Assembly: GCA_035362715.1 (NCBI GenBank)
Contig: DAOSDU010000006.1
Coordinates: forward strand, 29,151-93,150
Reading direction: 5' to 3'
DNA: 64,000 bases
Source of the DNA: Methanofastidiosum sp.
GTDB lineage: Archaea; Methanobacteriota_B; Thermococci; Methanofastidiosales; Methanofastidiosaceae
The translations under genes were made by a program, and so were the position numbers. The notes below the pieces were generated by a model. That model was not told the origin of the DNA, did not search any database, and saw only the letters and a list, made by a program, of their open reading frames with translations. Below are positions 2 through 23,727 of this stretch, in pieces (positions within the stretch are counted from its first letter, which is position 1; each line of letters opens with the position of its first letter).

Positions 2-1225
2 ATAAGCTATCTAATGGATCAGGCTATGAAGGTTGGAGCTCCTGTGATCGGTATAAATGATTCCGGAGGCGCAAGGATACAAGAAGGTGTTGATTCCCTG
101 AAGGGGTATGGGGATATTTTCTACAGGAACACAATATCTTCTGGAGTTATACCTCAGATAACAGCTATTATGGGGCCTTGTGCTGGTGGTGCCGTTTATT
201 CTCCGGCAATAGGGGATTTTGTCTTCATGACCGATGTTACAAGTTATATGTTCATAACTGGGCCTCAAGTTGTAAAAACTGTGTTGCATCAGGATGTGAC
301 CTTTGAAGAACTTGGTGGGCCTCATGTCCACGAGACTAAAAGCGGAATGGCACATAGGGTTGGAAAAAATGACGAGGATACCTTAAATCTTATTAGAAAT
401 CTCTTCAGTTATTTGCCTTCAAACAACATGGAAGACCCTCCATCAATTGCACCAACAGATGACCCATTGAGGGAGACTCCTGAGCTTTATTCGATTATAC
501 CAGAAGATTCAAACAAAGGTTATCATGCAAGTCAAATTGTTAAAGCAGTTCTTGATAACAATGAATTCTATGAAATTCATCCTCTCTATGCACCAAATAT
601 CCTAGTTGGATTTGGGAGACTTGACGGAAAAGTCGTGGGCATAGTCGCAAACAATCCAAGCCATATTGCTGGAGTTTTAGATATTAACTCCTCTGACAAA
701 GCATCAAGATTTATCAGATTCTGTGATGCTTTTAACATTCCAATACTGACTTTTGTTGACACACCAGGTTATATGCCGGGATTAGACCAAGAGCATGGCG
801 GAATTATAAGACACGGTGCAAAGCTATTATATGCGTACTCTGAAGCTACTGTTCCTTTAATTACAGTTATTGTGAGAAAAGCTTACGGGGGGGCATATAT
901 AGCTATGGCTTCAAAACATCTACGGGCTGATGCAGTTTATGCGCTGCCAACAGCAGAGATTGCAGTTATGGGGCCAAAAGGCGCATGTGAAATAGTCTTT
1001 AGAAAAGAGATATCTGAAGCCTCTAATCCTACAAAGAAAACAGATGAACTAAGCGAAGACTACAAACAGAAATTTGCAAATCCCTACATGGCAGCTGCAC
1101 GTGGCTATGTTGATGATGTAGTTGACCCAAAAAATCTAAGAACGATACTAATCAATTCACTTAGGGTATACCAGTCAAAGAGAGAAGTACTACCCAAGAA
1201 AAAACATGGTATAATTCCATTCTAA
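2..1225 (+). CDS. Acyl-CoA carboxylase/decarboxylase carboxyltransferase subunit (PccB/MmdA 12S family), 5' partial (frame open to window start)
   Basis: Motifs [37 protein letters not shown]...[30 protein letters not shown] typical of carboxyltransferase 12S/PccB; ORF continues upstream of first Met to position 2. Confidence 0.85.
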
Positions 1226-1226
1226 G

Positions 1227-1571
1227 GTGGATATAATGGTAAACATGGATTATTTGACTTTAGGATTGACCTTAGTTATAGTTGGTATGGCTATAACTTT
1301 TTTGGTTTTGATTATTTTATCAGGAGTTATACATTATTTTGGTAAATTTATTAAAAATAGGGAAGAAAAGAAAAATAATAAAGAAGAAAAAATTAATCTA
1401 ACTGAAACTCAAACTGAAGATGAAGTAGGAATATCAAATGATGAATTAACTGCAATGATAACAGCAGCTTATTTCCATATATCTAAAGATGCAGTTTCAC
1501 TTATTAATTTGCATTCTAAGATAGATAACTGGAAATTATTAAGCAGACGAGAACAGATGGAGATGTTATAA
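1227..1571 (+). CDS. Small single-TM Lys/Glu-rich membrane protein, possible gamma/delta (OadG/MmdD-like) subunit of Na+-pumping decarboxylase
   Basis: N-terminal hydrophobic helix followed by charged KE-rich tail; position between carboxyltransferase and biotin carrier as in oad/mmd operons. Confidence 0.35.
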   Translation: MDIMVNMDYLTLGLTLVIVGMAITFLVLIILSGVIHYFGKFIKNREEKKNNKEEKINLTETQTEDEVGISNDELTAMITAAYFHISKDAVSLINLHSKIDNWKLLSRREQMEML

Positions 1572-2014
1572 TGGCTAAATACAAAGTTAATGTAGATGGA
1601 AAGGAGTACGAAGTAGAAGTTGAAAATATTGAAAGTGGAAATCTAGAGGTCAAGTTGGGTAATAAGAAGTCTACGGTTAATATCCAAGAGTTAATGGGAA
1701 CTGCTAGACAACAATCATCACCCAAACAAGTTTACCAAGCTCCATCCTATACTCCCCAAAGAGAAGCGCCTGCTCCAATTTCAAAACCGTCTTCAGGTAA
1801 AGGTGAGCCTGTAAAAGCCGTCATGTCAGGAACAGTTCTATCAATAAAAAAGAATCCAGGGGACAAAGTTTCAGTTGGGGACGTAGTATTGATACTCGAA
1901 GCAATGAAAATGGAAAATGAGATCTCCTCTCCATCAGATGGGGTAATAGGTAACATTTCAGTGAAACCAGGACAGACTATAAACACTGGTGATACCCTCT
2001 TCACAATAGGATAA
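1571..2014 (+). CDS. Biotin carboxyl carrier protein (biotinyl domain subunit)
   Basis: C-terminal biotinyl-lysine motif EAMKMENEI, Pro/Ala linker, hammerhead GDxV motifs. Confidence 0.75.
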   Translation: MAKYKVNVDGKEYEVEVENIESGNLEVKLGNKKSTVNIQELMGTARQQSSPKQVYQAPSYTPQREAPAPISKPSSGKGEPVKAVMSGTVLSIKKNPGDKVSVGDVVLILEAMKMENEISSPSDGVIGNISVKPGQTINTGDTLFTIG

Positions 2015-2022
2015 GTGATAAT

Positions 2023-3159
2023 ATGGTCGACTTAATATCGTCCTTTATTGAAATATTCAAAACAACAAGCGGGATTTTTGATTTATCTGCCGGTAATGTT
2101 GCGATGATAGTGGTAGGTTTCATACTTATATACCTCGCAATCTACAAGGGATTTGAGCCGCTATTGTTAGTGCCAATTGGTTTTGGGGCAATTCTTTCTA
2201 ATATACCATTAACTGGTATCTCTGACCCTAATGCAATTGGTGGGGTATTTGGTATTTTCTTAAAGTATCTGATAGCTAATGAAATTGTCCCTTGTCTAAT
2301 ATTCATGGGGATTGGTGCTCTGACAGATTTTGGGCCGTTGTTAGCAAATCCAAAAACATTCATACTTGGTGCTGCTGCTCAGATTGGAGTATTTATTGCG
2401 CTTGTAGGTTCAATTATACTTGGATTTACTCCACAACAAGCTGCCTCTATCGGAATAATCGGAGGAGCGGATGGACCAACTACAATTTATGTCACTACAG
2501 TTCTAGCTCCTGAATTATTAGGTGCTACTGCAGTAGCTGCATACTCCTACATGTCGTTAGTGCCGTTAATACTACCGCCTGCAATTATGCTTACAACTAC
2601 AAAAGCTGAAAGAAAAATTAAAATGGTACAGATGAGAGTAGTTTCACAGAAAGAAAAAGTTGCATTCCCAATCATAGCTGCAATTGTAACTGGATTATTA
2701 GTACCTAAGGCTATCCCATTAGTAGGACTTCTTTTTGTTGGAAATCTTTTCAGGGAGACAGGTGTTACACAAAGGCTTGCCAAAGGTGCTAGTGAGGAGC
2801 TTTTGAACATTGTGACAATTATCCTTGGACTTTCAGTTGGTAGTACTATGGATGCGGCCAACTTCCTTAATCTACAAACAATGAAGATCATGATTTTGGG
2901 AGTAGTGGCATTCTTTACTGCTGCATGTGGTGGAGTTATAGTTGCAAAGATAATGAATCTATTCCTAAAGGAGAAGATTAATCCTATGATAGGTGCTGCC
3001 GGTGTTTCAGCAGTTCCAATGTCTGCGAGGGTTGTACAGAAAATGGGATTAAAGGAAGACCCACAGAATCACCTTCTAATGCATGCAATGGGCCCTAATG
3101 TTGCAGGAGTCATCGGTACCGCTGTTGCCGCTGGAGTCTTGATAGCTTCTCTCGCTTGA
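2023..3159 (+). CDS. Na+-translocating decarboxylase beta subunit (OadB/MmdB/GcdB family integral membrane protein)
   Basis: Strong conservation with OadB: FEPLLLVPIGFGA, FMGIGALTDFGPLLANPKT, GIIGGADGPTTIY, LMHAMGPNVAGVIGTAVAAGV; multi-TM. Confidence 0.92.
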   Translation: MVDLISSFIEIFKTTSGIFDLSAGNVAMIVVGFILIYLAIYKGFEPLLLVPIGFGAILSNIPLTGISDPNAIGGVFGIFLKYLIANEIVPCLIFMGIGALTDFGPLLANPKTFILGAAAQIGVFIALVGSIILGFTPQQAASIGIIGGADGPTTIYVTTVLAPELLGATAVAAYSYMSLVPLILPPAIMLTTTKAERKIKMVQMRVVSQKEKVAFPIIAAIVTGLLVPKAIPLVGLLFVGNLFRETGVTQRLAKGASEELLNIVTIILGLSVGSTMDAANFLNLQTMKIMILGVVAFFTAACGGVIVAKIMNLFLKEKINPMIGAAGVSAVPMSARVVQKMGLKEDPQNHLLMHAMGPNVAGVIGTAVAAGVLIASLA

Positions 3160-3551
3160 TTTTCATGGATGAATTCAAAATAAAAGTTAATGATAAAGAA
3201 CATCAGATTAAATTGAAAAAAGTATCTGATGGAGAGTATCAGGTATTTTATGATGAATTCATCTATGAAATCTCTATTTTAAAGAAGATACAGAAAAAGA
3301 AAGATGATAGCCAATACAGAAAAGAAAATGATATTATTTATGTTGATTCGATAATAGGAGGTATTGTACTCAAATTATCGAAGAAAGCCGGAGAAAGGGT
3401 GGTAAAAGGAGACCCGATAATGACATTAATAGCAATGAAGATGGAGACAGAAATTTATGCTCCGGAGGCAGGGTTACTATCAAGGATACCAGTTTATGAA
3501 GGGATGATTGTTGAAAAGGGCGAACTTCTCTTTGTGATAGATACAAAATAA
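3156..3551 (+). CDS. Second small biotinyl-domain protein (biotin/lipoyl attachment)
   Basis: IAMKMETEI biotinyl-lysine motif near C-terminus; overlaps stop of upstream gene (translational coupling). Confidence 0.6.
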   Translation: MIFMDEFKIKVNDKEHQIKLKKVSDGEYQVFYDEFIYEISILKKIQKKKDDSQYRKENDIIYVDSIIGGIVLKLSKKAGERVVKGDPIMTLIAMKMETEIYAPEAGLLSRIPVYEGMIVEKGELLFVIDTK

Positions 3552-5511: not shown

Positions 5512-5533
5512 ATTTTTTAATCTGGGTGCAAAG

Positions 5534-6838: not shown

Positions 6839-6863
6839 AATACTTAAAGGCTATTTTGATTAA

Positions 6864-6934
6864 GCCGGGGTTGTCGAGAGGCTCGGCCTCGGACTGCAGA
6901 TCCGATCACGAGGGTTCAACTCCCTCCCCCGGCT
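6864..6934 (+). tRNA. tRNA-Cys (GCA)
   Basis: Cloverleaf by eye: acceptor GCCGGGG/CCCCGGC, D stem GTCG/CGGC, anticodon stem TCGGA/TCCGA with loop CTGCAGA, T arm GAGGG-TTCAACT-CCCTC; no encoded CCA. Confidence 0.85.
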
Positions 6935-6941
6935 TCGCAAA

Positions 6942-7086
6942 GGGGACATGGTGTAATCAGGCCATCATCATGGACTCCAGAATCCTTTCCGGATGAAAGA
7001 GAATACTGATGGCGTAATGCCGATGAAGAAATTCTGGAGTTTGATGGGGAAATCCATGGATCAGGGTTCAAATCCCTGTGTCCCCA
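6942..7086 (+). tRNA. tRNA-Trp (CCA) with about 71-nt intron (approx 6981-7051) at canonical 37/38 position
   Basis: Acceptor GGGGACA/TGTCCCC, anticodon stem ATGGA...TCCAT with loop CTCCAG|A interrupted by intron, T arm CAGGG-TTCAAAT-CCCTG; archaeal tRNA-Trp characteristically carries an intron. Confidence 0.8.
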
Positions 7087-7102
7087 CTTTAAGGTTGATT
7101 TT

Positions 7103-7555
7103 ATGGGCACTTCAAATTTTACTACAATATCAAAACTTGTTAGACCTGAGAATTTGAATCATCACGGAACTCTTTTTGCCGGTGTGACTTCAATGTGGTT
7201 TGTTGAGGGGGCTTTTATCGAAGCTTCTAGAGTTTATGGGGATCCTACAAAAATTGTCTGTATCAAGGTCCATGGTATGAAATTTATTAGACCAGGAAAC
7301 AATGGAGATATCGTCCAGATTGAATCAGTTTTAGCGCATGTTGGAAAAACAAGCTTGACCATATACACAAAGATATACAAAAGACTCACAAAAGAGCAAC
7401 TTGTTGATGGATTTGTAACTTTTGTCACAGTTGATGAGAAAGGAAAGTCCATGCCACATGGAATTAACTATAAACCAAGTGGTGAAGAGGAACAAAAGCT
7501 CTGGAATGAAGTTGAGAGACTAAAACACTCTGATTCTCAAACAAAAATGATATAG
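7103..7555 (+). CDS. Hotdog-fold acyl-CoA thioesterase (YciA/acyl-CoA hydrolase-like)
   Basis: Pattern VRPENLNHHGTLFAGV...VHGMKFIRPGNNGDIVQIESVLAHVGKTSLTI matches 4HBT/hotdog thioesterases. Confidence 0.65.
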   Translation: MGTSNFTTISKLVRPENLNHHGTLFAGVTSMWFVEGAFIEASRVYGDPTKIVCIKVHGMKFIRPGNNGDIVQIESVLAHVGKTSLTIYTKIYKRLTKEQLVDGFVTFVTVDEKGKSMPHGINYKPSGEEEQKLWNEVERLKHSDSQTKMI

Positions 7556-7558
7556 TAA

Positions 7559-7643
7559 GGAGGGATTGCCGAGCTTGGCCAAAGGCGCAGGATTCAGAGT
7601 CCTGTCATGTAGGTGTTCGTGGGTTCGAATCCCACTCCCTCCA
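7559..7643 (+). tRNA. tRNA-Leu (CAG), type II with long variable arm
   Basis: Acceptor GGAGGGA/TCCCTCC, anticodon stem CAGGA/TCCTG with loop TTCAGAG, long variable arm, T arm GTGGG-TTCGAAT-CCCAC. Confidence 0.85.
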
Positions 7644-7667
7644 CTTATTCTAAAAAATAAAAATTTT

Positions 7668-8036
7668 TTAAAAAATTGCTAGATTTGAAAATATAGCTGC
7701 AAGTACCATAAAGGCTATGTATGCAAGTATTAGTGCTAAAAAGGCCTTTAACCACGATGTTTCGTAGATGGATTTTACGACCCATAGAGCTACAACGAAA
7801 CTAATAATTGTCCCGATAATCCCTAAAGATCCGAAAAATGATCCCAATATAGCGCTCAATGCTATTAATACAACAACACCGAGAATTGCTTTCCAGTATG
7901 AAGAATCGTCAATTCCTGCAAATTTAGCCCCTATCCAAAGGAACAGGGCGTCTAACAATACTAGAACAACTAAGCCTATTATGCCTACGTTCCACATTCC
8001 ACCTATTGCAAATGTGCCAAACATTTTTACACCCAC
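7668..8036 (-). CDS. Hypothetical integral membrane protein (4 TM)
   Basis: ORF with strongly hydrophobic helices; no recognizable family. Confidence 0.4.
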   Translation of the reverse strand: MGVKMFGTFAIGGMWNVGIIGLVVLVLLDALFLWIGAKFAGIDDSSYWKAILGVVVLIALSAILGSFFGSLGIIGTIISFVVALWVVKSIYETSWLKAFLALILAYIAFMVLAAIFSNLAIF

Positions 8037-8118
8037 ATTGTTGAGGATAACAATTATATATAGCTTAGTCTATTTGAATCCAAATATCTTCAAATAATCC
8101 CATCTTATATGAGAATTT

Positions 8119-8301
8119 TTATTCTTTTAATTTCTTTGACTCTTCTCGTCCTTTTGAGATAAAGTATATTCCAGCAACAAATGATAGAGCCAAAATTACT
8201 ATATCTAAAAATTCAAAATACAAAGCATTTGTAAATCTGTAATAAAGTGTAGATAAGCCTGATCCAATGCAAAGACATCCCAATAGTAGTTTGTAGTTCA
8301 T
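8119..8301 (-). CDS. Small hypothetical membrane protein
   Basis: 60-aa ORF with two hydrophobic helices. Confidence 0.3.
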   Translation of the reverse strand: MNYKLLLGCLCIGSGLSTLYYRFTNALYFEFLDIVILALSFVAGIYFISKGREESKKLKE

Positions 8302-8377
8302 ACTTTGAGTATAAATGAAAGACTTAAAATAGTTTCTATTAGGTTATTTCAGAATAACTTGAATTAGGGATCCAATT

Positions 8378-9112
8378 TTATTTTTTTAATATTAACTCGA
8401 TTTCTTCCTTTCCCATGCCGGGCCTTATACTTCCAGAGTATAATATCTCAATCATCTTTCTATCAATTTCAGAGTATCTCTGAGTTTGAGTCCACCCCTC
8501 GTAAAATATGCTGTCACGGTATTTCAAGGAATCCCTCATTAACCCTAGAGACTGAGTTAGTTCCTCTCTTATCATATGAGACCTTTCTTCCTGAAGGAGG
8601 GTATTCTCATTAGCAATGCAGATATCACATTCGTAAATCACATTATTCCTCCATTTACAGTTAAAATACCCATAGTTTCCAGGAGCTGCATTACAGATAG
8701 AAAAATCGGATAATGGAACAAAGTTAATATCGATATTTTGATTCGTGCTAACGATAGATAGGTTTATCTTATCACCAATAATTTCATTGATCTCTGATAC
8801 TACTTGATTCAAGGCCTGGATATCCATTTCATTTGGACTTCCATTGATTTTTATCCTTATATCAGAATCCCATTTTCTTATAACCTGTATATTGTTACCA
8901 TACTCAGTTCCTAGCGCAATTTCTTTGAAGTATTCAATCTCCTTGTCTGTGTAACTTGACTGAGAATTTCCATTTTCAACTGGGGCAGGTTTTGTTTCTT
9001 CTATGTATAAACAACAAGCAGAAACTAATAAAACAAGAAAAACTATTGGAAAGATAATTTTATTTCTGGTCACGAAAAATAATATCGGTTGTGATATATA
9101 ATGATTTCTCAT
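8378..9112 (-). CDS. Hypothetical exported/membrane-anchored protein
   Basis: N-terminal TM/signal anchor followed by Cys (lipobox-like); conserved-looking HMIREELTQSLGL segment but no confident family. Confidence 0.4.
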   Translation of the reverse strand: MRNHYISQPILFFVTRNKIIFPIVFLVLLVSACCLYIEETKPAPVENGNSQSSYTDKEIEYFKEIALGTEYGNNIQVIRKWDSDIRIKINGSPNEMDIQALNQVVSEINEIIGDKINLSIVSTNQNIDINFVPLSDFSICNAAPGNYGYFNCKWRNNVIYECDICIANENTLLQEERSHMIREELTQSLGLMRDSLKYRDSIFYEGWTQTQRYSEIDRKMIEILYSGSIRPGMGKEEIELILKK

Positions 9113-9160
9113 ATAGCCTAATCAAGACATAAGATTAATAAACTATTATTAGAATTAAGA

Positions 9161-9478
9161 TTGACTAATATGAATAAAGATATACCTCGCGACGCCATAA
9201 AGAATCTGCTTTTTGAGATTATATGCGCTATAGATTCATCAGAGTACCAGATCTCAATTAAGGAGATAGAAGATCAGATAGAAGCAGGAAAAATTATGGA
9301 GTTTCTAGGAAAACGTATATCCATCGTGCAACTTACAAGTAGCGAGTATGAATTGATTAATGAGGAGTTGAAAAACCTCTTAGATGTCGCAAGACCTAAT
9401 ATAGAGCGTTATTGGGGCATGAAGAATTCTGGATTGTGCTTTCTTGCATCACTTATAATAGAAGAGTTTTGGAATTAA
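9161..9478 (+). CDS. Hypothetical protein
   Basis: 105-aa ORF, acidic, no recognizable motif. Confidence 0.35.
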   Translation: MTNMNKDIPRDAIKNLLFEIICAIDSSEYQISIKEIEDQIEAGKIMEFLGKRISIVQLTSSEYELINEELKNLLDVARPNIERYWGMKNSGLCFLASLIIEEFWN

Positions 9479-9608
9479 ATCATCTCTGCTTTTTACCTTT
9501 CTTTTTATAAAAATAGATTATCCCGACAAATAGTACTATAGGTATTGATATCCTAAATACAAGTGCAATAATAAAAGTCTGAAGGGGTGTTAATTCCATA
9601 TTTGTCCC

Positions 9609-10460
9609 TCACATCTCTTTACTAAGGAAGTAAAAGAATAATGTTGCGCTCAATAGGTCTGCGGCGCCGCCTGGGCTAATATTTTTTTTGAGAAAATCCA
9701 TTTCAAGATCTAATATCTTTGACATCCCAGTAGTCGTTAAAACTCCGCCCACCTTTACTATTTCATCTGCTTTTTTCTGGATATCATAGTATGCTTCGAT
9801 GCCGTTTCTTGAGATAATGTTTGTGTCTTCAGCTTTTGACATTATGGCAATAAGTGCGTGAAGTGAAGACTTGTTTAAGTCTTGAGTTTTCTCATACACT
9901 TTTTTGAATTCGGGCAGGCCAAGTTCCATAACTGTTGGGAGTCCTTTTTCTACTTCCCCCCTAATACCTGCGATGCCATGTTTGACAAATGTATTTTCGC
10001 CCTTTGAAAGAGTTTTTTTACCTTTCTTGATTGATCCAAGTTCTTTTTCAGTTATTCCGGAAGTTATCTTTGAAACTGAAGATGAAACATTTTTTGGGGA
10101 GAGTCTCCTTTTGTTCAATAAATGGCCCGATGCGCCAAGTATCAGATAAAAAAGGAATATGAGGCCTTTTTGAGTGTTGACGCCGTTTGTTACTTCAAAC
10201 ATCCTCTCTTCAACTTCCAGCCCTAGTTTTCTTAAAGGTGGAAGCATCTTCTGTATATCCCCTTTATAATTATAACCAAAGTGGGATACCTCCTTAAAGC
10301 CCTGGCTCAGTACAGCTGTGCTCTTCAAGAAAAGTGTAAAGTCCATGTCCCTGTGAGCCCCTGACGAAAAAGGTGTAACAAGACCGGGTTTTGGGTGCGT
10401 AGATACCTCTAAAAGGATGCTCCTAGTTGCAAGTTCCCCCAGTAAGTCTACTTTTTTCAT
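9609..10460 (-). CDS. citG: Triphosphoribosyl-dephospho-CoA synthase (CitG/MdcB/MadG family)
   Basis: Motifs THPKPGLVTPFSSGAHRDMDFTLF and overall size match CitG/MdcB; sits in Mad/Mdc-like operon. Confidence 0.7.
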   Translation of the reverse strand: MKKVDLLGELATRSILLEVSTHPKPGLVTPFSSGAHRDMDFTLFLKSTAVLSQGFKEVSHFGYNYKGDIQKMLPPLRKLGLEVEERMFEVTNGVNTQKGLIFLFYLILGASGHLLNKRRLSPKNVSSSVSKITSGITEKELGSIKKGKKTLSKGENTFVKHGIAGIRGEVEKGLPTVMELGLPEFKKVYEKTQDLNKSSLHALIAIMSKAEDTNIISRNGIEAYYDIQKKADEIVKVGGVLTTTGMSKILDLEMDFLKKNISPGGAADLLSATLFFYFLSKEM

Positions 10461-11104
10461 AAATATGCCTCTATGCTCTCTCTATCTATCAATATAACGT
10501 CTCTTAATCCTTTCCCAAGCAGTGTATCGCTTTCAGATGCATACTCTTTAAGGTTTATGCCATAACCGGACCTAAGATGAATTTCAACATCAATCTTAAT
10601 CCTCATTTTAGACTCAATCTCGTTGCACAAAGCTAAGAGACCAATAAGCTCATCTGGAGCGCAGTTTTTTACAATTAGATCCAAGTCGGACTTGTCATGG
10701 GTGTAAGGTAATCCCGTGATAATTTCAAGGGATGTTGAACCCCAAACACCTACCTTAAATTCATTTTTTACGTGGTATAATGCGGACAGTGCAGGTGTTC
10801 TTGATTGAAATTTGAAATTTGTAATTTCATAGGGAGTTACTAGCTTTGTAATTTTATTTCCAGAAACAGATGATCCGAATCTAAGCCTTCTCCCATTTTC
10901 TGTATAGGGATAAACAAAGCCAATGAAGACCGTTTCTTTTTCAGAATAGTAGTTATCTCCTTGAGTGACATCAATCTCTTCTCGCCTTACAATTCCAGGG
11001 AGGATATTCTGAAGTATAAGTTTTTTAAACTCCTCATTTTGAATTGTTGAGGTATCTATCTGTTTCCAGTCGGAAAACACCAGATCATGCCTATGAAAAA
11101 TCAT
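10457..11104 (-). CDS. Phosphoribosyl-dephospho-CoA transferase / holo-ACP synthase (MdcG/CitX-like)
   Basis: GVWGSTSLEIITGLPYTHDKSDLDL motif resembling MdcG; adjacent and overlapping CitG homolog. Confidence 0.5.
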   Translation of the reverse strand: MIFHRHDLVFSDWKQIDTSTIQNEEFKKLILQNILPGIVRREEIDVTQGDNYYSEKETVFIGFVYPYTENGRRLRFGSSVSGNKITKLVTPYEITNFKFQSRTPALSALYHVKNEFKVGVWGSTSLEIITGLPYTHDKSDLDLIVKNCAPDELIGLLALCNEIESKMRIKIDVEIHLRSGYGINLKEYASESDTLLGKGLRDVILIDRESIEAYL

Positions 11105-11112
11105 GTTTGGAT

Positions 11113-12231
11113 TTACCTATCCTTGACCCAGCATGGATCCTTAACGCTTAAAGTTTGGTAGTCAAGCTGTGCCTGAACAAGTAGGTCAAACATCTTTGTC
11201 TTAACAGGCCCTTCTATGATTACTGGCTCGTTGTTCTCTTCATAACCTTTCGGGATTATTGAAGGTTTAAGTTCTAGGACTGTCCTATTGGAGTTTAAGA
11301 TAACATCCTCGGGGACTTTTGCTACCTTGGATTTTATTCTCAAAATGCTTCGGCATGCCCTTTCAATTGTTTGTTTCGCATTTAGTGTTGTTTCTCTAAC
11401 GTAAATTTCATAATCAGGTTGGGTTCTAGCTCTCATATAGGTGATTATCTTCCCATTTTTGTCAAGCGCATGACCAGATTCAACTACAGGAAAACTATCC
11501 CCTGTGGGAAGTCCGCCCACTACTGCTTCTTTGAAATCATGCCCCACATCAGATCTTACAAATGCAATGTCTTCCCTCACAGGATTTCCATTCATTGTTA
11601 TCCACCCAAATTCTTGGGTACCGTATATATCATTGACTCTGGCACCGAGAATGTCATGTATTAGATCAGCAGCCTCTAAATCCAAAGGTGTGCCTATGCA
11701 GTTTACTATATCCACTTTTGGGAGGTCTTCTGCAACATTTAATTTTATAGCGTCTTGTAATGAAGCTTTTAGAAATGATGATTCACCAAAAATTACATTT
11801 GGCTCCTTGTAATATAGATCCATTAGAAAAGAATCTCTGGATGATTTAGTGAGAAATGTCCATGTCACACCCAGCTCTTCCAATGCGTTTCTTGTTATTG
11901 CATTTAGTAGAGGTGGATAACAAAACATCGCTTTGTGGCCTTCTTTTACTCCTGCCATCTTTAATGCATTTTTACCTACATTTTTTCGGTATTCTTTTTC
12001 ATTTGGCGTTATGCCAACTAGATTCTGCCAAGCAGTTGTTCCTGTTGTGAAGGTTATGTATGCGTAGTTTAGAGGCGTATGTACCTCTTCTATAACGTGT
12101 GCTGCAGTTGGGCCATTTATGCCCTTATCAGCAAGAGTCCTATGTTTCATTTCATCAAAAGAAGGAACTGTAGAAAAAGTTTCAACACTATCTTTTAATT
12201 CCTCAAAATAAGGATTTGTTTTTTTTTCCAT
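11113..12231 (-). CDS. Adenylate-forming ligase-like protein, possible ACP-SH:acetate ligase (MadH/CitC functional analog)
   Basis: Weak adenylate-forming signatures (FTTGTTAWQ, YGTQEFGW); operon context between carboxyltransferase and MdcG-like genes. Confidence 0.3.
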   Translation of the reverse strand: MEKKTNPYFEELKDSVETFSTVPSFDEMKHRTLADKGINGPTAAHVIEEVHTPLNYAYITFTTGTTAWQNLVGITPNEKEYRKNVGKNALKMAGVKEGHKAMFCYPPLLNAITRNALEELGVTWTFLTKSSRDSFLMDLYYKEPNVIFGESSFLKASLQDAIKLNVAEDLPKVDIVNCIGTPLDLEAADLIHDILGARVNDIYGTQEFGWITMNGNPVREDIAFVRSDVGHDFKEAVVGGLPTGDSFPVVESGHALDKNGKIITYMRARTQPDYEIYVRETTLNAKQTIERACRSILRIKSKVAKVPEDVILNSNRTVLELKPSIIPKGYEENNEPVIIEGPVKTKMFDLLVQAQLDYQTLSVKDPCWVKDR

Positions 12232-12273
12232 TTTAATTCCTCAAAATAAAAAAATTTAAAATAAAGGAAATTA

Positions 12274-13149
12274 TTATAATAGCTCAGGTAGGAGCTTTTC
12301 GTATTCTTCTTGCATCTTCTTGATGGCTTCCATTCTTTTTGTTCTGCCGCCTCTCTGTGCACCGACTTCTCCTCTGTGCCAAATTCCAAGCTGGTCTTCC
12401 TTACCCTGCTTTTTAAGCTCTCTAATTTCCTTTACTGTCTTGATGATAGTAGCTCTCATGTCCTCAGGTTTCTTTACCATGTCGTCTATTCCACCAAGGT
12501 CATAGAAGAATTCAGCTCCTGAAGCAAATACTGGATTTGTCTTGACAAGCTCGTTTAGCCGCTCTAGGGGTATCTTTGTAATAACAGCTATACTTGTTGT
12601 AGGCATGACGTGAACAATTGTTCCATATTCTTTTGGGAGTGCAAGAATTCTGTCTGAAAGAAGTCCGTGACATAAGAATCCACCACTTACCGCTCTTCCT
12701 ATAATCATTCCAATTACAGGATGTCCTGCCAATCTTGCATCTTCAATAGCAAACTGGTAGGAAGCTGTTCCTTTTGTCATTCCGACAATTTCCTCTATTT
12801 TTCCTGGACTGTTTCCTGGAGTGTCTATTAATAGAATAATTGGCCTCTTCTTGTCTTTTGGCCTGTCCTTGTCTGCATTTATTGTAGCGTACATTGCCTG
12901 AGAGAATTTGTAAGCTTCTTCCATTCCTAAGATTCCGCTGTAAACAACTCTAAATCTGGGATTTGGTCTCCTTGAGTTATTTGCGAGAACTGAGCATACT
13001 TCTCCGTCTAGCATTGCCTGGCCCACCATTACTGGAGGTGCAAGCTCTGCATCTAGATGAGTAGTTCCAATAACATTTTCTTGGAATGAATCCTTGTCAA
13101 ATATCATCTGGATTGCTTCTTCTGTCTTTCCGATTAGTGATGTTACCAT
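12274..13149 (-). CDS. Carboxyltransferase subunit, AccA-like (MdcE/MadD-type gamma subunit)
   Basis: IDTPGNSPG...GRAVSGGFL pattern typical of AccA/MdcE carboxyltransferase alpha-type subunits. Confidence 0.7.
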   Translation of the reverse strand: MVTSLIGKTEEAIQMIFDKDSFQENVIGTTHLDAELAPPVMVGQAMLDGEVCSVLANNSRRPNPRFRVVYSGILGMEEAYKFSQAMYATINADKDRPKDKKRPIILLIDTPGNSPGKIEEIVGMTKGTASYQFAIEDARLAGHPVIGMIIGRAVSGGFLCHGLLSDRILALPKEYGTIVHVMPTTSIAVITKIPLERLNELVKTNPVFASGAEFFYDLGGIDDMVKKPEDMRATIIKTVKEIRELKKQGKEDQLGIWHRGEVGAQRGGRTKRMEAIKKMQEEYEKLLPELL

Positions 13150-14115
13150 TTAAATCCTCCTTGGCCTTCTTTTTACAACTGAAAGAAACTTTTCCTGGGG
13201 CATCTCTGGGATCTGGTCAACGTTTTCGTTTCCATAAATTTTCCAGAGGTCCTTTGAGTCCTTTATTTTCTTTTCAGCAGCTAGTTTCACTACTTCAAGA
13301 TTTTCTTCAACAAGCTGTGGTGAACCAACTTTTCTTGTCTTAGAAATCTTACTCATAGGTTCATCGACAATGTTGACAATTGTGTCTCTGAATGTACCAA
13401 TTGTATCTTTTATTAAGTAGTCAACATCTCCTAGGATGTATTTTGACCTTGCGCCCATTGTCCTCCATATGAGGGCTCTGTCGGATGCGTCAAATTCATC
13501 CTTTCCTACTTCCTGCTGGATAACTTCAGGACCAGTAAGTCCAATTCTTCCAAAGTCGTTTGCGATGACAACATCTGCACTTAAACAGACGAATCCCTGT
13601 GCACCATATGCACCTATTGTGCTGCCTGTTATTGCAATATAGGGTACCTTGTTTTGAAGTTCCCAAATTGTTTCCATTGATTCAGAGTGCATTAAAAGTC
13701 CAGCGTTTGCTTCGTGGAGTCTTACTCCTCCAGAGTCAAATGAGACTATGCATATTGGTTTTCTGTCGTCTGGTACTGAGCCGTATTTTTCCTTCATCTT
13801 TTCATAAGTCTTTAAGGCGAGTTTCATTGTGTAGGCCATCTTAGCTCCGTTAACTTCACCAAGTGCTCCACCAACGAACTTTCCTTCTTGGGATATTACA
13901 AATACTGGGTGTTTCTTTATCTTACCAACGCCCACAGTAATCCCATCGTCGAATTCAACAGCCTCTCCAAGAATCAATAAGTGTGGACTTGTCATTTTAT
14001 CTCTTGGACCTAGAAATTCCTTGAAAGTGTCTTTATCTACCATTCCGTAAGCTCTTTCCCTAGCGGTTGCTTGGTAAAAGCTCTTACTCTGAAGATCTTC
14101 CCAATTTATTTTCAT
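13150..14115 (-). CDS. Carboxyltransferase subunit, AccD-like (MdcD/MadC-type beta subunit)
   Basis: ITGSTIGAYGAQGFVCLSADVVIA, VSFDSGGVRLHEANAGL resembling AccD/MdcD; adjacent to AccA-like partner. Confidence 0.7.
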   Translation of the reverse strand: MKINWEDLQSKSFYQATARERAYGMVDKDTFKEFLGPRDKMTSPHLLILGEAVEFDDGITVGVGKIKKHPVFVISQEGKFVGGALGEVNGAKMAYTMKLALKTYEKMKEKYGSVPDDRKPICIVSFDSGGVRLHEANAGLLMHSESMETIWELQNKVPYIAITGSTIGAYGAQGFVCLSADVVIANDFGRIGLTGPEVIQQEVGKDEFDASDRALIWRTMGARSKYILGDVDYLIKDTIGTFRDTIVNIVDEPMSKISKTRKVGSPQLVEENLEVVKLAAEKKIKDSKDLWKIYGNENVDQIPEMPQEKFLSVVKRRPRRI

Positions 14116-14124
14116 AATATCACC

Positions 14125-14448
14125 TTATTGGAGACCTCCTCCATTATCTACTGCCTGCTGAAGTCTTCTAATAACTACTGCGGGGGTTGCTGCGTTGTCA
14201 TTTATGTTGACTTTGACTCCTGAGAGTCCAGTTTTATCAATGAATTTCTTAACGACTGTTTCCCAGACGTCATCAAAACCGACGACTGTTGTTAAAATGT
14301 GTATTTTAATTTTTCCTTTCAGAGCGTTTTCCTTTTCAATCAAGACTTCAAGATCTCCACTGGCTACAACACCAATGTGGGACCATTCGTCCTTTATTGT
14401 TTTAGGGGTTTCAGGCTTAAATTCATAGTTTAATTCAGTTAATGCCAT
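14125..14448 (-). CDS. Malonate decarboxylase-type acyl carrier protein (MdcC/MadE delta subunit; CitD-related)
   Basis: HIGVVASGDLEVLIE matches VGCVGSGDLEVLLE of MdcC; about 100 aa. Confidence 0.7.
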   Translation of the reverse strand: MALTELNYEFKPETPKTIKDEWSHIGVVASGDLEVLIEKENALKGKIKIHILTTVVGFDDVWETVVKKFIDKTGLSGVKVNINDNAATPAVVIRRLQQAVDNGGGLQ

Positions 14449-15828
14449 TTAGTCCCCTCCATTCTTTGACTTGTCCATGTGTTTTTCAATAAAGTCGGTG
14501 TGGAAAACTCCTCCTCTGAATATCTGGTTTTTCATGACTTTTTTGTGGAATGGAATTGTTGTTTTAATACCATCTACCATAAATTCGTCAAGTGCCCTGT
14601 ACATTCTGTCAATTGCCTCGTTTCTGTCTTCTCCCCATACAATCAATTTTGCGATAAGAGAGTCATAATATGGTGGTATCTGGTACCCTTGGTAACATGC
14701 TGTATCGACTCTAACAAAAGGCCCTCCCGGAAGGATAAGTTTTGAAATTTCACCAGGGGATGGAACGAATGTGTTTGGATCTTCAGCGTTAATTCTGCAT
14801 TCAATTGCATGACCTCTAATCTGAATGTCTTTCTGTGTGTATGGTAATTTTTCTCCAGCTGCTACTTTTATACCAGTCTTTACGATATCGATGTTTGTTA
14901 TCATTTCAGACACACAGTGTTCTACCTGGACCCTTGTGTTCATCTCCATGAAGTAGAAATCGTTTTCCTTATCGTTAAACAAAAATTCTACTGTTCCGGC
15001 ACCTTCATAGTTTGCAGCAAGTGCCGCCTTGACTGCTGCCTCCCCCATCTTCTTCCTTATTTCAGGGGATATAGCAGGTGAAGGTCCTTCTTCGACAAGT
15101 TTCTGATGTCTTCTCTGGATAGAGCAGTCCCTTTCTCCAAGGTATATTGCATTTCCATATTGGTCAGCAATAATCTGAATCTCAACGTGTCTTGGTTGTT
15201 CTATGTACTTTTCGATGTATACATCAGGGTTCCCAAAGGCTGCCTGTGCTTCGGCTTGACAAGATCTCAAAGCAGATTCTAGCTCTTTTTCGGACTTGAC
15301 AAGTCTCATTCCCTTTCCACCGCCGCCTGCTGAGGCTTTGCAGATTACAGGGACTCCGATCTTCTTTATGAGTTTATCGGCTTCCTCGATTGTTTTTATA
15401 ATTCCATCAGAACCGGGTGTTACTGGAACACCACCTTTCTTCATGGTATCTTTAGCTGTTGCTTTGTCTCCCATTGCGTCAATTGATTCTGCACTGGGGC
15501 CTATGAATTTAATTCCATTAGCTTTACAAAGCTTTGAAAATCTAGAGTTTTCTGCAAGAAATCCGTAACCTGGGTGAATACCTTCTGCGCCCGTGACAAT
15601 TGCGGCGTTAATGATATTCATCATGTTCAAGTAACTCTTAATTGATGCGGCAGGTCCAATATTGACTGCTTCATCTGCGAGTGTAACATGAAGAGCATCT
15701 TTATCAGCGTCAGAGTAAACAGCAACTGATTTTATTCCCATTTCCTTGCATGCCCTGATTATCCTTACAGCAATTTCTCCTCTATTTGCAACAAGAACTT
15801 TCTTAAACATATTAATCCTCCTTACCAA
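14449..15828 (-). CDS. accC: Biotin carboxylase (ATP-grasp)
   Basis: [46 protein letters not shown]: canonical AccC motifs; 459 aa. Confidence 0.92.
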
Positions 15829-17576
15829 TTTCTAAATTTGACTGGTGGTTCGTATAAACCTCCAGACCATTCTACAAGTTCACTCATGCTCTTTGCAGCA
15901 AGTTTTGATCTTTTAGCGTCATTAAATGATAGGTCTAAATCTTCAGGAAGCATAACTACTCCGGCCTTCCTTAATTTCTTAGTCTGTGAATCATCAGCTG
16001 CAAGTCCTAGAGGCGTGTATCCTGCTACTGCCTTAATTGCGTCCATTCTTTCCTTTAATGATTTACATTTGTGGATGTATGCGATTCCTTCTTCTGTAAC
16101 TATATGTGTTATATCGTCACCGTAAATCATGATAGGGGGTATCTCGAATTTGGCCTGGGCTTGTAGTTTGAACGCGTCTAGTTTTTCTAAGAATACTGGA
16201 GCCATTCCTTCTCCAAATGTTTCAACCATTTGGACTACTAGTTTTCTTCCTCTGTATATTGGCCCAATCAATGATTCTCTCATACCATCTTCTTTTGAAG
16301 CCATAAGCCATCCTTTTGACGGGTGTCTTCTACCGGGTGCGTTACATGCCATGTTAGGCGCCCCACCAAAACCTGGAATTCTTCCAGCAGTTGCAGCGGC
16401 ACTGTTACCAAATTGGTCAATTTGAAGAGTTGAACCAAAGAATGCATCTACAGCATAATGACCAGCGGCCTGGGACATTACTCTGTTTGATCTCATTGTT
16501 CCATCAGGACCTATTGGGAATATATCTGGTCTTGCCATAATATATTTCTCCATTCCAACTTCACTACCGAATGGCATGAAGGTTTCAGCCCATCCTGATT
16601 CTATAGCAGGTATCATTGTTGGGTGTGGATTTAATGCCCAGTGTGTACAAATCTTTCCTTTTAATCCCATCTCTTCCCCAAATGTTGGCAGTAAAAGTTC
16701 AACGGCTGCGGTGTTAAAACCTATACCGTGATTTAGAGTCTTAACTTCGTATTTTGCGTAGACTCCAACTAAAGCCATCATAGCTATGAATATCTGAGAT
16801 TCAGTAATTAATCTTGGATCTCGTGTAAAGAGAGGTTCAATATAATATGGGTCCTCAGTGGGTACAATAAAGTCAACCCAGCCACCAGGTATATCTACAC
16901 GAGGTACCTTGTTAACAATCTCATTGACCTGTACTATTACAATACCTTTTCTAAATTTGGTAGCTTCAATTATTGAATGGGTTTCTTCTGTGTTGAATCC
17001 TGTGTAAAGATTTCCTTCCTTGTCTGCAGCATTTGCGGCGACTAGACATACTCTTGGTGTGAGGTCAAGATAAGTTCTAGCAAACAATTCCATGTATGTG
17101 TGAATTGCACCAATTGTTATCTTCCCATTCATTACCATACTTGCAAGTCTTGTTGCTACAGGGCCTGAATAACAAAAATCAACTTTTGAGGCTATACCTT
17201 TTTCAAAAACATCTAAATGTTCTGGTAAAGCAAGTACTGATTGTACCATGTGAATATTATTTACTTTTGAAGGACTTACCTTTGCAAAAGCTTTTGCTAA
17301 AAAATTAGCCTGCTTCTGATTGTCCCCTTCTATTGCAACTCTGTCGCCTGGTTTAATGACAGTTTCCAAAAGAGCTACAGCATCGGCCGGATCAATGATT
17401 TTTGTACCTGATTTGACAAATCTCTTTGCTTCGGCAAGCCTTTTTTCTGTATCTTCTCCTTTTTTGTCCCATCCTTTTTTTGCTCTCTCTATTCTATCGT
17501 CATGGGGTATACCTGACACTTTGCCGGGTGTTTGGAATATATCCCTTAGGTAGTTTACATCTTCCATAAGTATCAC
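15822..17576 (-). CDS. MdcA/CitF-family alpha subunit (acetyl-S-ACP:malonate ACP-transferase / citrate-CoA transferase family)
   Basis: 584 aa, size and operon position of MdcA/MadA; CoA-transferase-family I-like segments; overlaps accC start. Confidence 0.55.
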
Positions 17577-17596
17577 CTTATTAGGTAGTACCCAGC

Positions 17597-18082
17597 TTAG
17601 AGAGGCTCAAGAAGCATTAGTACCTGTCCAACTTTGACAAGAGTTTCATTTGTTACTTTAATTTCTGCAATTCTTGCTTTTCTTGGTGCTGTTACTTCAT
17701 TAAACATCTTCATAGCTTCAACAAGTGCTACAACTTGTCCTGCTTCGACTATATCCCCTTCCTTTGGAAGTGGTTTCTTATCAATTGTAGTTCCGGGAGA
17801 TACATAAGATACTCCTGGTGTTGGGGCTGTAAGTTCTATCATGTTTGAAGATGCAGCTGCCTTTGGTGCTTCCTTTGCAACAGGTGCTGACGTTTCTTCA
17901 ACAGTTCCTGCAGACGTCATTGCAGCAGGGATAGAAATTTGAGGCTGAGCAGCATGAACAGCGGCACTTCCACCGGCAACAACAGTTCTAATCTCAACGG
18001 AATCCTTTCTGACTACCAACTCTGCGATATTGTTTTTTTTACAAGCTTCAAGAATTGATATTAAAGACTCTAAGTTCAACAT
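17597..18082 (-). CDS. Biotin carboxyl carrier protein (AccB/MadF-like)
   Basis: C-terminal EAMKMFNEV biotinylation motif, Ala/Pro-rich linker. Confidence 0.8.
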   Translation of the reverse strand: MLNLESLISILEACKKNNIAELVVRKDSVEIRTVVAGGSAAVHAAQPQISIPAAMTSAGTVEETSAPVAKEAPKAAASSNMIELTAPTPGVSYVSPGTTIDKKPLPKEGDIVEAGQVVALVEAMKMFNEVTAPRKARIAEIKVTNETLVKVGQVLMLLEPL

Positions 18083-18283
18083 TTATTTTCCTCCAAAATA
18101 TTCTCTTACCTCTATAGGGTAGTTGTTTTAAGAGATTAAAAACTGATTTAAAAATCTTTTGTTTGTTTTAAGTGCAAACTACAAAAAATAACATTAAAAT
18201 AAATAAAAAATAATATACTAAATAAATGATTTTGCATTTTATTGCCAAATTCAAGCCTTGATTTCTATTTTTAGGCCGAATTA
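18083..18283 (-). promoter_or_regulatory. AT-rich intergenic region upstream of the BCCP-led Mad-like operon; likely promoter (TATA/BRE)
   Basis: 200-bp very AT-rich spacer preceding nine tightly packed co-oriented genes. Confidence 0.3.
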
Positions 18284-20143: not shown

Positions 20144-21340
20144 CTATAAAAATCCATCTAAACTAGATTGATTATTCTTCTTTTTATTTAGATGCACCTT
20201 ACCGTACATCCCCCCTCCGCCTGGTTCTATATAGATATTGCCTTCTCTGAAATCAACTATTGCCTGAGCAACTTTTTCACCGGCGACTTTTTCTATTTCC
20301 TCTCTCGGGGTAACAATAAGAACATTTATCTCATTTTTGAATGACTGAACCAATATCTTCCAGAGATCTTGGACTTTTTTTGAATTTACTGAAGCAAGGC
20401 CAAGTGTCTGAACTAAAATTTCTGCGAGAGGAATAGTTTTGATGTATTTAGGTCTGTGTTCGGGATGAGTAACTTCTTGATCATGCAATTCTTTTATTCT
20501 ATCTGCAACGCCTTTTTTTATCAGACCTCCACAACTACACCTGTTCTTTATTTCGATTGCATTTTCAATTGTGTATTTTTTATAGCATCTTGTACATGCG
20601 GTCATGTGGTATTTTCCAAGATCAGGATCTATACCGACATTTAGAACAAATTCATTTCCTCCACGTCTTTTAATGGCCTTAATTATTTCATCGTAGTTAT
20701 TGTCCTTTACCTTTAGTCTGTTGAATTCTCTACCAATTCTATGCGGCCATGGCGAATGGGCATCTGAGTTGGTCATGAACGTGACATCTTTCAACTCCGA
20801 TATACAGTCAGCCATCTGAGCATCAGCAGAAAGGCCAAGTTCAAGGAAAGGTATATTTTTAGTCTTATAGCACTCTTCAAGGGAATCATATTCTTTGTAT
20901 ATTGAAGTCCATGGAGTAAAAGCATGAGATGGCCCAATTAATCCATCTATTTTGTTGACTATGTCTAAGAGCTGGTCTCCTCCCAGGTTTATATTGCATC
21001 TTCCATCAGTGTCTATATTTGGGGATTTATCTTTTATTATATTACGAAACTCTTCAACAGATGATAGAGAAGGGAATAAAATGACGTGGTGGACTCTCCT
21101 TTGATCTTCTACTTCTGTAGTCAGGATGAATCTCATCCCACTTTTATGCTCAAATGTACCATCATCTATTTTGGTTACTGAAGAAACAAAATGATTAAGC
21201 CAGTTCTTATTGAGGCAATCCCCAGACCCTATTGTGTTTAATCCCTTAAATTTTGACTGTTCTGCAATAACAGGGATTTCCATGTTATTGGAAGTACCTC
21301 CAGAATACATTGAATGAATATGAAAATCGACATTTATCAT
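20144..21340 (-). CDS. PHP-domain metal-dependent phosphoesterase family protein
   Basis: N-terminal VDFHIHSMYSGG characteristic of PHP domain; C-terminal Cys cluster. Confidence 0.55.
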   Translation of the reverse strand: MINVDFHIHSMYSGGTSNNMEIPVIAEQSKFKGLNTIGSGDCLNKNWLNHFVSSVTKIDDGTFEHKSGMRFILTTEVEDQRRVHHVILFPSLSSVEEFRNIIKDKSPNIDTDGRCNINLGGDQLLDIVNKIDGLIGPSHAFTPWTSIYKEYDSLEECYKTKNIPFLELGLSADAQMADCISELKDVTFMTNSDAHSPWPHRIGREFNRLKVKDNNYDEIIKAIKRRGGNEFVLNVGIDPDLGKYHMTACTRCYKKYTIENAIEIKNRCSCGGLIKKGVADRIKELHDQEVTHPEHRPKYIKTIPLAEILVQTLGLASVNSKKVQDLWKILVQSFKNEINVLIVTPREEIEKVAGEKVAQAIVDFREGNIYIEPGGGGMYGKVHLNKKKNNQSSLDGFL

Positions 21341-23069: not shown

Positions 23070-23076
23070 GTGGAGG

Positions 23077-23727
23077 ATGAATATGAAAAGAATATTAGTT
23101 ATAATTATAGGAATGCTAATATTATTTGCTGGCTGTACTTCTCAGCCAAACACGAACACAAATAATAATACGAACAATGATAATAATCAAACTAATGGAA
23201 CTCAGACAAAAACACTTTACGAACAAGTAGCAGAAGAAGCTATTTGCCCATGCAGCACGCTTTTTAATTTAAAAGACTGTAAACAATATTTCCCAGATTG
23301 CCAGTATACCCTAATCGTTGATGCTACTATAAATAACATGATTTCCGAGGGTAAAACAAAAGACCAGATACTGAAAGCTGTTGATCAATACAATACTGGG
23401 ATAATTGAAGGAAAATTAAACGAATTCAGAAGATCACAAGATGAAAATAGGGTAATAGTACTTTATTTCAAATCTTCACTTTGTGAAATATGCCATGAGA
23501 AAGAGCCAGTTTTAGATGAAATAAAGGAAAAATACAAGGAAAAGATTGATATTTACGAATTTGATAGGATAAATGACGGAGTAATATTCGACTATTTTGT
23601 TGTTGATAGAATCCCAAGTATAGTCTTTTTTGACGGAAAATCAAGACTTAATGAGGTTCCTTTTAACAACATCAGCGTTGATGGAATAAGTTCATTATTA
23701 GATTTTACATTAGATAAAAAGAAATGA
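23077..23727 (+). CDS. Exported lipoprotein with thioredoxin-like domain
   Basis: Lipobox LFAGC, Asn/Thr-rich linker, CEIC CxxC motif in Trx-like segment. Confidence 0.5.
   Translation: MNMKRILVIIIGMLILFAGCTSQPNTNTNNNTNNDNNQTNGTQTKTLYEQVAEEAICPCSTLFNLKDCKQYFPDCQYTLIVDATINNMISEGKTKDQILKAVDQYNTGIIEGKLNEFRRSQDENRVIVLYFKSSLCEICHEKEPVLDEIKEKYKEKIDIYEFDRINDGVIFDYFVVDRIPSIVFFDGKSRLNEVPFNNISVDGISSLLDFTLDKKK

Follow-up and report, generated by a model that had tools for sequence, protein, structure and literature searches.

Why would an operon built from the parts of a malonate decarboxylase carry, in its midst, a gene for an ATP-dependent biotin carboxylase (BC)? The question is raised by a 64-kb stretch of DNA from a Methanofastidiosum genome (hereafter the window; positions are counted from its first letter), in which nine consecutive, co-directional open reading frames (ORFs) on the minus strand, running from 18082 to 9609, code for a system of the Mad/Mdc family that works on an acyl carrier protein (ACP) and has the biotin carboxylase AccC embedded in it. 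Methanofastidiosa are methyl-reducing methanogens that abound in anaerobic digesters. Elsewhere, the window holds archaeal housekeeping genes (for RadA, an RPA-like protein, ProRS, an ELP3-type radical SAM protein and HisRS), and the host of the operon is identified from sequence as a WSA2/Arc I methanogen, not a bacterium. In a comparison of 60 metagenomic loci, we found that AccC and the membrane decarboxylase subunit (OAD_beta/MadB) exclude each other. Our preferred reading, which we hold tentatively, is that the operon would encode an ATP-driven acetyl-S-ACP carboxylase, a Mad-type enzyme converted from a Na+-pumping decarboxylase, with the net reaction acetate + HCO3- + ATP → malonate + ADP + Pi.

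Architecture and type of the operon

Genes were assigned with the profile hidden Markov models of Pfam and NCBIfam, for which scores are given in bits against the model cut-off. The nine minus-strand genes listed in the initial annotation are all present, and the models back the assignments made there. In 5' to 3' order, they encode a biotin carboxyl carrier protein (BCCP), MadA/MdcA, AccC, an MdcC-type ACP, carboxyltransferase (CT) beta, CT gamma, a MadH-type ligase, MdcG and CitG, so that BC, BCCP and CT are all co-encoded in one operon. In the ORF list and the sequence, no gap between genes exceeds 42 nt. With revised starts for MadA and AccC, the intergenic distances along the operon are 29, 11, 0, 9, 0, 42, 8 and -4 nt; the tight packing described initially was borne out, whereas the partial overlap reduces to a single case, 4 nt between MdcG and CitG. 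A Shine-Dalgarno-like motif is clear upstream of seven of the nine genes. The sequence shows one long gap only, an AT-rich non-coding leader of 201 nt on the minus strand (18083..18283), presumed to be the archaeal promoter region of the operon. An arginase-fold gene was considered as a conserved 5' neighbour; when compared between the two subclades described below, the neighbours proved not to be homologous.

AccC (14449..15810, minus strand; 453 aa) is an ATP-grasp biotin carboxylase that scores 735 bits on TIGR00514 (cut-off, 626) and 605 bits against solved biotin carboxylases. Its start is most likely the ATG at 15810, preceded by a GGAGG 6 nt upstream, and not the TTG at 15828; the length of 453 aa agrees with that of its relatives. 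When compared with the E. coli biotin carboxylase sequence and the list of catalytic residues that we take as reference, the protein keeps K116, K159, the Gly loop, H209, K238, E276, E288, N290, R292, E296 and R338 (E. coli numbering). The gene starts 11 nt past the MadA stop codon, which the GGAGG overlaps, and its end abuts the start codon of the ACP gene. The MadA-AccC-ACP junctions are so tight that no intergenic room is left for a promoter of AccC's own.

MadA/MdcA (15822..17567, minus strand; 581 aa), the predicted acetyl-S-ACP:malonate ACP transferase, scores 860 bits on TIGR01110 (cut-off, 789) and 680 bits against the structure of Pseudomonas aeruginosa MdcA (5vit). It most likely starts at the ATG at 17567; the ORF list opens it at a GTG at 17576. 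Residues N59, Y134, R228, N258, I261, N292, F312, R341, Q345 and G381 serve malonate binding and catalysis in P. aeruginosa MdcA (PMC5534430), and all ten are identical in the archaeal protein. Among them are the malonate-binding residues R341, N292, Q345 and F312 of the narrow malonate pocket. This conservation argues for malonate/acetate as the acid pair that MadA would handle. The initial annotation had left room for a different substrate, and the same architecture could in principle serve another pair of acids, such as propionate/methylmalonate, or another dicarboxylate: malonate has no known use in this organism, and identity between the archaeal proteins and bacterial Mad subunits is only 50-64%. 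Set against the ten identical residues, the four of the pocket included, and a MadA score above the mdcA equivalog cut-off, however, a change of substrate appears very improbable.

Two carriers are encoded. The ACP is of the MdcC/MadE type (14125..14448, minus strand; 107 aa; TIGR03130, 104 bits, cut-off 84; PF06857) and carries its prosthetic-group serine in the motif IGVVASGDLEVL, which differs by one letter from the motif first read there (VGVV...). The AccB-like BCCP (17597..18082, minus strand; 161 aa; PF00364, 58 bits) consists of an N-terminal segment, an Ala/Pro-rich linker and a biotinyl domain with the biotinylation motif EAMKM. Its residues 2-159 align to positions 1-155 of the 156 in TIGR00531, at 72 bits and below the cut-off of 115, and it is 59% identical to the 181-aa carrier of a bacterial Mad cluster (L027, see below).

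The CT pair consists of a MadC/MdcD-like beta subunit (13150..14115, minus strand; 321 aa; NF005530, 324 bits; TIGR03133, 301 bits, cut-off 278) and a MadD/MdcE-like gamma subunit, predicted to be of the biotin-dependent type (12274..13149, minus strand; 291 aa; TIGR03134, 253 bits, cut-off 237). The 372-aa ligase that follows (11113..12231, minus strand) has a weak AMP-binding match of its own and orthologues with PF27502 (MadH_C), a domain found in all of its 669 homologue clusters. It is 78-96% identical to its counterparts in Methanofastidiosia, with bacteria next at 49-55%, and 50-55% identical to MadH of bacterial Mad clusters. By analogy with what we take to be the function of Malonomonas MadH, it is presumed to be an ACP-SH:acetate ligase that primes the carrier. 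The last two genes encode MdcG, a holo-ACP synthase or phosphoribosyl-dephospho-CoA transferase (10457..11104, minus strand; PF10620, 76 bits; TIGR03135, 91 bits, just under the cut-off of 99.7), and CitG/MdcB, a triphosphoribosyl-dephospho-CoA synthase (9609..10460, minus strand; TIGR03125, 276 bits, cut-off 272; PF01874, 249 bits).

Because of the signature in CT gamma and the pattern of identities, we assign the CT pair to the biotin-dependent Mad type and not to the biotin-independent Mdc type. CT gamma reads DTPGNSPGK, and DTPGN(S/G)PGK is common to every MadB-containing bacterial cluster, whereas MdcE of Pseudomonas and Lactobacillus reads DVPSQAYG, the site at which P. aeruginosa MdcE uses Gln100 and Tyr102 (PMC5534430). 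Between the subunits of the operon and those of bacterial clusters with MadB, MadF, MadH and MadLM, identity is 50-64%; together with the signature, this agrees with the likeness to the biotin-dependent system of Malonomonas that had been noted at the outset. For the CT pair, identity is 50-59% to the CTs of MadB-containing clusters as against 38-39% to the fused MdcDE of a Lactobacillus metagenome-assembled genome (MAG), and for CT beta, it is 52-59% to bacterial Mad clusters as against 38% to Lactobacillus MdcDE. The biotin-independent type, which the NCBIfam names imply, was ruled out on these two grounds. CTs of the biotin-dependent type score above the cut-offs of the models TIGR03133, TIGR03134 and NF005530 ('biotin-independent malonate decarboxylase subunit beta/gamma'). 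These models do not separate the two types, and automatic annotation will therefore mislabel Mad-type clusters.

The operon shares MadA, the MdcC-type ACP, the MadC/MadD-type CT pair with DTPGN.PGK, a biotin carrier, MadH, MdcG and CitG with the biotin-dependent, Na+-translocating malonate decarboxylase (MAD) of Malonomonas rubra and with the many bacterial Mad clusters, as yet uncharacterised, of this analysis (L024-L029 and L049-L112; Peptococcaceae, Spirochaetota, gut Clostridia), and the core order MadA-ACP-CTb-CTg-MadH-MdcG is the same as well. Unlike MAD, it has no MadB/OAD_beta, no small OadG-like subunit and no MadL/MadM carrier, and it has AccC between MadA and the ACP. Its carrier is the first gene and codes for 161 aa, unlike the usual 69-aa MadF of MAD (the carrier of L027 is also long), and its host is an archaeon, whereas those of MAD are bacteria. 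The biotin-independent malonate decarboxylases (MDC) of Klebsiella, Pseudomonas and Acinetobacter (5vit, 5vip) likewise have MdcA, an MdcC ACP, MdcG, MdcB/CitG and the general MdcD/MdcE fold of the CTs. The operon CTs, however, match Pseudomonas MdcD (5vip_B) and MdcE at only 125 and 85 bits, respectively; the Gln100/Tyr102 motif of MdcE is absent; and the operon has a biotin carrier, AccC and MadH, which set it apart from MDC. No FabD-like acyltransferase match, as expected of an MdcH malonyl-CoA:ACP transacylase, was found among the nine genes, all of which are otherwise assigned.

AccC and the membrane decarboxylase in related loci

Eight aligned MadH proteins served as the query of a metagenome scan, and the 80 loci that it yielded were screened by tblastn. 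The comparison covers 60 of them, nine of archaeal type (MadH at least 80% identical, region covered) and 51 of bacterial type. AccC lies between MadA and CT beta in all nine archaeal-type loci (the initial annotation had proposed to check the conservation of the gene order in relatives), and none of the 51 bacterial-type loci has AccC. Conversely, OAD_beta was found upstream of MadA in none of the nine archaeal-type loci and in 40 of the 41 bacterial-type loci with at least 3 kb of sequence upstream of MadA. MadL/MadM are present in most of the 51 bacterial-type loci and in none of the nine. By tblastn, neither MadL nor MadM has a match in the window or in any archaeal locus, and no MadB/OAD_beta was found in the operon in the nine metagenomic archaeal loci, in L009, L022 and L023, or in that of the window. 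The nine-gene order of the window is repeated in L009, L022 and L023, and its 3' half in L030. The sole exception among the 41 bacterial-type loci is L101 (QMCE01001140.1, 5160-10550), a high-GC bacterial Mad-type cluster with MadA, the CTs and MadH, in which neither OAD_beta, AccC nor MadLM was found within about 5 kb on either side.

We also went through six bacterial contexts one gene at a time (L024 from Peptococcaceae, L025 from Spirochaetota, and L026-L029); none has AccC. All six have OAD_beta and a tiny OadG-like gene followed by MadA-ACP-CTb-CTg-MadH, plus MdcG, CitG and a biotin carrier. A 69-aa carrier and MadL/MadM occur in five; L027 has instead a 181-aa carrier and no MadL/MadM. 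This last cluster (Logan SRR13776099_630, 1823-11110) is the bacterial layout closest to the archaeal one, with the order MdcG-CitG-OadG-OAD_beta-BCCP (181 aa)-MadA (580 aa)-ACP-CTb-CTg-MadH. Its beta subunit is of the general type, with 525 bits on TIGR01109 and only 179 on the MadB equivalog. L027 is a plausible model of an ancestral form in which the beta subunit had not yet given way to AccC. We also looked for Mad clusters with AccC outside Methanofastidiosia and found none in the 51 bacterial metagenome loci or in the six bacterial contexts.

When MadA was used to scan one genome per species, the loci at 95-99% identity came from Candidatus Methanofastidiosum MAGs and those at 78-81% from other Methanofastidiosia MAGs. 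A neighbour-joining tree of MadA, for which one Mdc sequence served as the root, groups the AccC-bearing loci in a single clade made up of two subclades; with this rooting, the tree does not resolve whether the clade nests within the bacterial ones. The arrangement is kept across the two subclades, which are 78-83% identical to each other, and this indicates selection for AccC at this position. The homologues of AccC itself pass from at least 78% identity, in Methanofastidiosia, straight to about 65%, in bacterial proteins of the AccC/PycA type. The top bacterial relative at about 65%, the only one inspected, adjoins a PycB-like gene, an ordinary pyruvate-carboxylase context. We conclude that AccC is of a bacterial type and that it was inserted once, with the arrangement kept since.

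A putative acetyl-S-ACP carboxylase and its rivals

A CT and a carrier combined with a BC form an ATP-driven carboxylase, and the Na+ decarboxylases of oxaloacetate and methylmalonyl-CoA have ATP-dependent counterparts of this kind, pyruvate carboxylase and propionyl-CoA carboxylase, in which the CT is homologous and a BC replaces the beta subunit. The Na+-pumping decarboxylases of the family combine a CT and a carrier with OAD_beta (PMC7274780). The operon follows the same module logic as these decarboxylase/carboxylase pairs. Unlike for those pairs, no ATP-dependent counterpart was found described for the malonate (MAD) family in a literature search of incomplete coverage, which likewise returned no earlier account of an 'acetate carboxylase' or of malonate decarboxylase clusters that include AccC. 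The genes themselves are already in public MAGs and 'malonate decarboxylase' has been noted before; the replacement of MadB by AccC was not found described.

By the module logic, a BC version of the malonate family would be a carboxylase, and it is this scheme that we favour. It is also favoured because the operon combines BC, BCCP and CT with all the parts of a Mad-type ACP cycle, because AccC and the membrane decarboxylase exclude each other while the AccC-bearing clade is monophyletic and has kept the arrangement, and because the catalytic residues of AccC are intact and its junctions tight. The suggestion, made in the initial annotation, that AccC lets the complex run as a carboxylase is strengthened by the exclusivity in the 60 loci and by the 11-nt junction; the direction of catalysis, which compound is released and what the cell uses it for, we infer.

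In the proposed cycle, CitG and MdcG would install a 2'-(5''-phosphoribosyl)-3'-dephospho-CoA arm on the ACP, and MadH would prime the thiol of the ACP with acetate. AccC would carboxylate the biotin of the AccB-like carrier with ATP and bicarbonate, and the MadC/MadD-type CT would transfer the carboxyl group to acetyl-S-ACP to give malonyl-S-ACP. MadA would then swap the malonyl group for fresh acetate, releasing malonate and regenerating acetyl-S-ACP. A canonical AccC, an AccB-like carrier and a two-subunit CT of the crotonase fold are what the operon has in common with ATP-dependent biotin carboxylases (AccABCD, PycA/PycB, archaeal acyl-CoA carboxylase). In contrast to AccABCD, its CTs fail the AccA and AccD models, with 30-50 bits against cut-offs of 317-319. 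The carboxyl group would be accepted by acetyl in thioester linkage to a phosphoribosyl-dephospho-CoA ACP and not by an acyl-CoA or pyruvate, as in AccABCD and PycAB, and, unlike in the multi-subunit carboxylases, a transferase, MadA, would release the free dicarboxylate.

Malonate decarboxylation has a free energy of about -17 kJ/mol and ATP hydrolysis one of about -32 kJ/mol, so that ATP-driven carboxylation of acetate would be feasible, at about -14 kJ/mol. The reverse use of AccC, making ATP from malonate decarboxylation, was considered and rejected: by textbook values it would cost about +14 kJ/mol under standard conditions and would be far worse at cellular ATP/ADP. As for a use of the product, Methanofastidiosa are an uncultured class of methanogens reported to be without any carbon-fixation pathway, and malonate may be a C3 building block for such an organism.

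Several points weigh against the proposed carboxylase. No enzyme or pathway consuming free malonate or malonyl-S-ACP was found in the window, and we know of none in methanogens. Malonate has, moreover, been regarded as a carbon source of these organisms, a claim that reportedly goes back to Nobu et al. in 2016. It is listed as a possible carbon source for WSA2, in line with a decarboxylase, in a published account (PMC6052691). Finally, an OAD_beta of the L027 type is encoded 6.4 kb from the operon and could accept the carboxylated carrier, which makes it a candidate partner in trans for a decarboxylase.

That beta subunit also qualifies the initial statement that the cluster has no membrane Na+-pump subunit: the statement holds inside 9609-18082, but the same window encodes OAD_beta at 2023-3159, in a separate cluster. 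Tblastn with bacterial OAD_beta and the NCBIfam models place a Na+-translocating acyl-CoA decarboxylase set at 14..3551 on the plus strand. It comprises an MmdA-like CT (14-1225; TIGR01117, 688 bits), which is cut by the window edge and has 530 aa in L030, an OadG-like subunit (1227-1571; TIGR01195), a biotin carrier of 147 aa (1571-2014), OAD_beta (2023-3159; TIGR01109, 520 bits, cut-off 191) and a second biotinyl protein (3156-3551), all on the plus strand. A family III CoA-transferase and then an RraA-like protein follow in the same direction (cluster region, 14-5511). The cluster is convergent with the 3' end of the operon, and its layout recurs in other contigs of the genus (L030-L032). 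On the MadB equivalog TIGR03136, the OAD_beta scores 184 bits against a cut-off of 597; it is of the same general type as the beta subunit of L027, both scoring about 180 bits on this model. Its relatives are 87-93% identical and then, in Archaeoglobus, Thermococcus and Methanomicrobia, 66-72%, and no match near 80% identity, where the mad genes of subclade II fall, was found in the homologue search. This OAD_beta appears to be of archaeal descent.

On the published reading, the operon would be an assimilatory or energy-conserving malonate decarboxylase: malonate would be taken up, loaded on the ACP by MadA and decarboxylated with biotin, and the carboxybiotin would be discharged in trans by the beta subunit at 2023-3159, with AccC as a co-transcribed passenger or as a BC shared with other CTs (MmdA/PccB-like, PycB). 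The presence in the window of an OAD_beta gene, of the general type also used by L027, the closest bacterial Mad cluster, fits this account, as does the fact that true decarboxylases have a MadA, a MadH and a carrier of the same kinds; so does the mention of malonate in the WSA2 literature (PMC6052691). The PycB-like neighbour of the top bacterial AccC relative likewise implies that such BCs can serve other CTs. Left unexplained, however, would be an AccC kept in mid-operon in every Methanofastidiosia locus and in none of the 51 bacterial Mad clusters. Moreover, the beta subunit sits in a complete cluster of its own, with a CT, an OadG-like subunit and two carriers; the identities of its relatives jump past the range near 80% in which subclade II would be expected; no archaeal locus has the MadL/MadM carrier; and subclade II has a second BC, with no OAD_beta seen within 10 kb. 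We therefore consider a decarboxylase possible but rather unlikely.

The organisation of subclade II (L022, L008 and L046) bears on AccC in a second way. There, a CT homologous to the MmdA-like CT of the window (57-62% identical) lies directly after CitG. The partners of this PccB-like CT are a 126-aa carrier and, in the place of OAD_beta, a 525-aa biotin carboxylase (L022, 16479-20038), and no OAD_beta was found within 10 kb of the loci. This is a second swap of a beta subunit and a BC within the same archaeal class, here for the MmdA/PccB-like CT. With a second full set of BC, BCCP and CT, subclade II does not need the embedded AccC as a general-purpose BC. That accC might simply be the organism's sole carboxylase gene, lacking any functional linkage to the operon, had been raised as an objection at the outset; the adjacent set rejects this for subclade II, and the 11-nt junction and strict conservation weaken it in the lineage of the window.

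The 3' end of the operon is near a PccB/MmdA-like CT cluster in both subclades, directly upstream of it in L022, L008 and L046, and 6.4 kb away and convergent with it in the window. Possibly, then, the Mad-type CT moves the CO2 of malonyl-S-ACP to biotin, and the neighbouring PccB/MmdA-like CT carboxylates propionyl- or acetyl-CoA without ATP, AccC supplying carboxybiotin when malonate is absent. Such a transcarboxylase, or dual-mode enzyme, would also fit the propionate assimilation proposed for the organism in the earlier account (PMC6052691). Every CT cluster, however, comes with one or more biotin carriers and with a BC or a beta subunit of its own, so that cross-talk is not required; carrier sharing between a Mad-type CT and an acyl-CoA CT is without known precedent; and the proximity could be due to chance. 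We regard this possibility as improbable.

Should the carboxylase reading be right, the operon, which was apparently put together from parts of bacterial origin, would supply the ATP-dependent counterpart that the malonate decarboxylase family has lacked, and a new class of biotin carboxylase that acts on an acetyl group bound as a thioester to a phosphoribosyl-dephospho-CoA ACP. With MadA, it would amount to an 'acetate carboxylase' that fixes bicarbonate into free malonate for one ATP. Every Na+-decarboxylase family would then have its ATP-driven mirror image, and the metabolic model of Methanofastidiosa, which are at present credited with using malonate as a carbon source, would change. Metabolic engineers, too, would take an interest in a route that leads from acetate and bicarbonate to a C3 dicarboxylate at the price of one ATP. 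Even should the carboxylase reading prove wrong, the locus remains a clear example, among biotin enzymes, of swapped modules and of transfer from bacteria to archaea.

Other features of the window

On the plus strand, a full-length match to the Rfam tRNA model (6942-7086; 44 bits) extends over 145 nt right after tRNA-Cys. It was not called by ARAGORN and is probably an intron-containing archaeal tRNA. A redox cluster on the same strand (21433-26377) encodes a thioredoxin-reductase-like flavoprotein, followed by three thioredoxin-fold proteins and a 694-aa Fer4-domain protein, and is divergent from a gene of the TIGR00375 family (20144-21340).

The region from about 41500 to 63400 contains large ORFs without a Pfam match, among them one of 1633 aa (55812-60713), one of 620 aa (61288-63150) and several of 250-385 aa, as well as genes for a 693-aa DNA methylase (51621-53702) and a NucS-like protein (45904-46938). 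The GC content rises from about 30% to 40-45% past 54 kb. This region may be an integrated element or a defence island.

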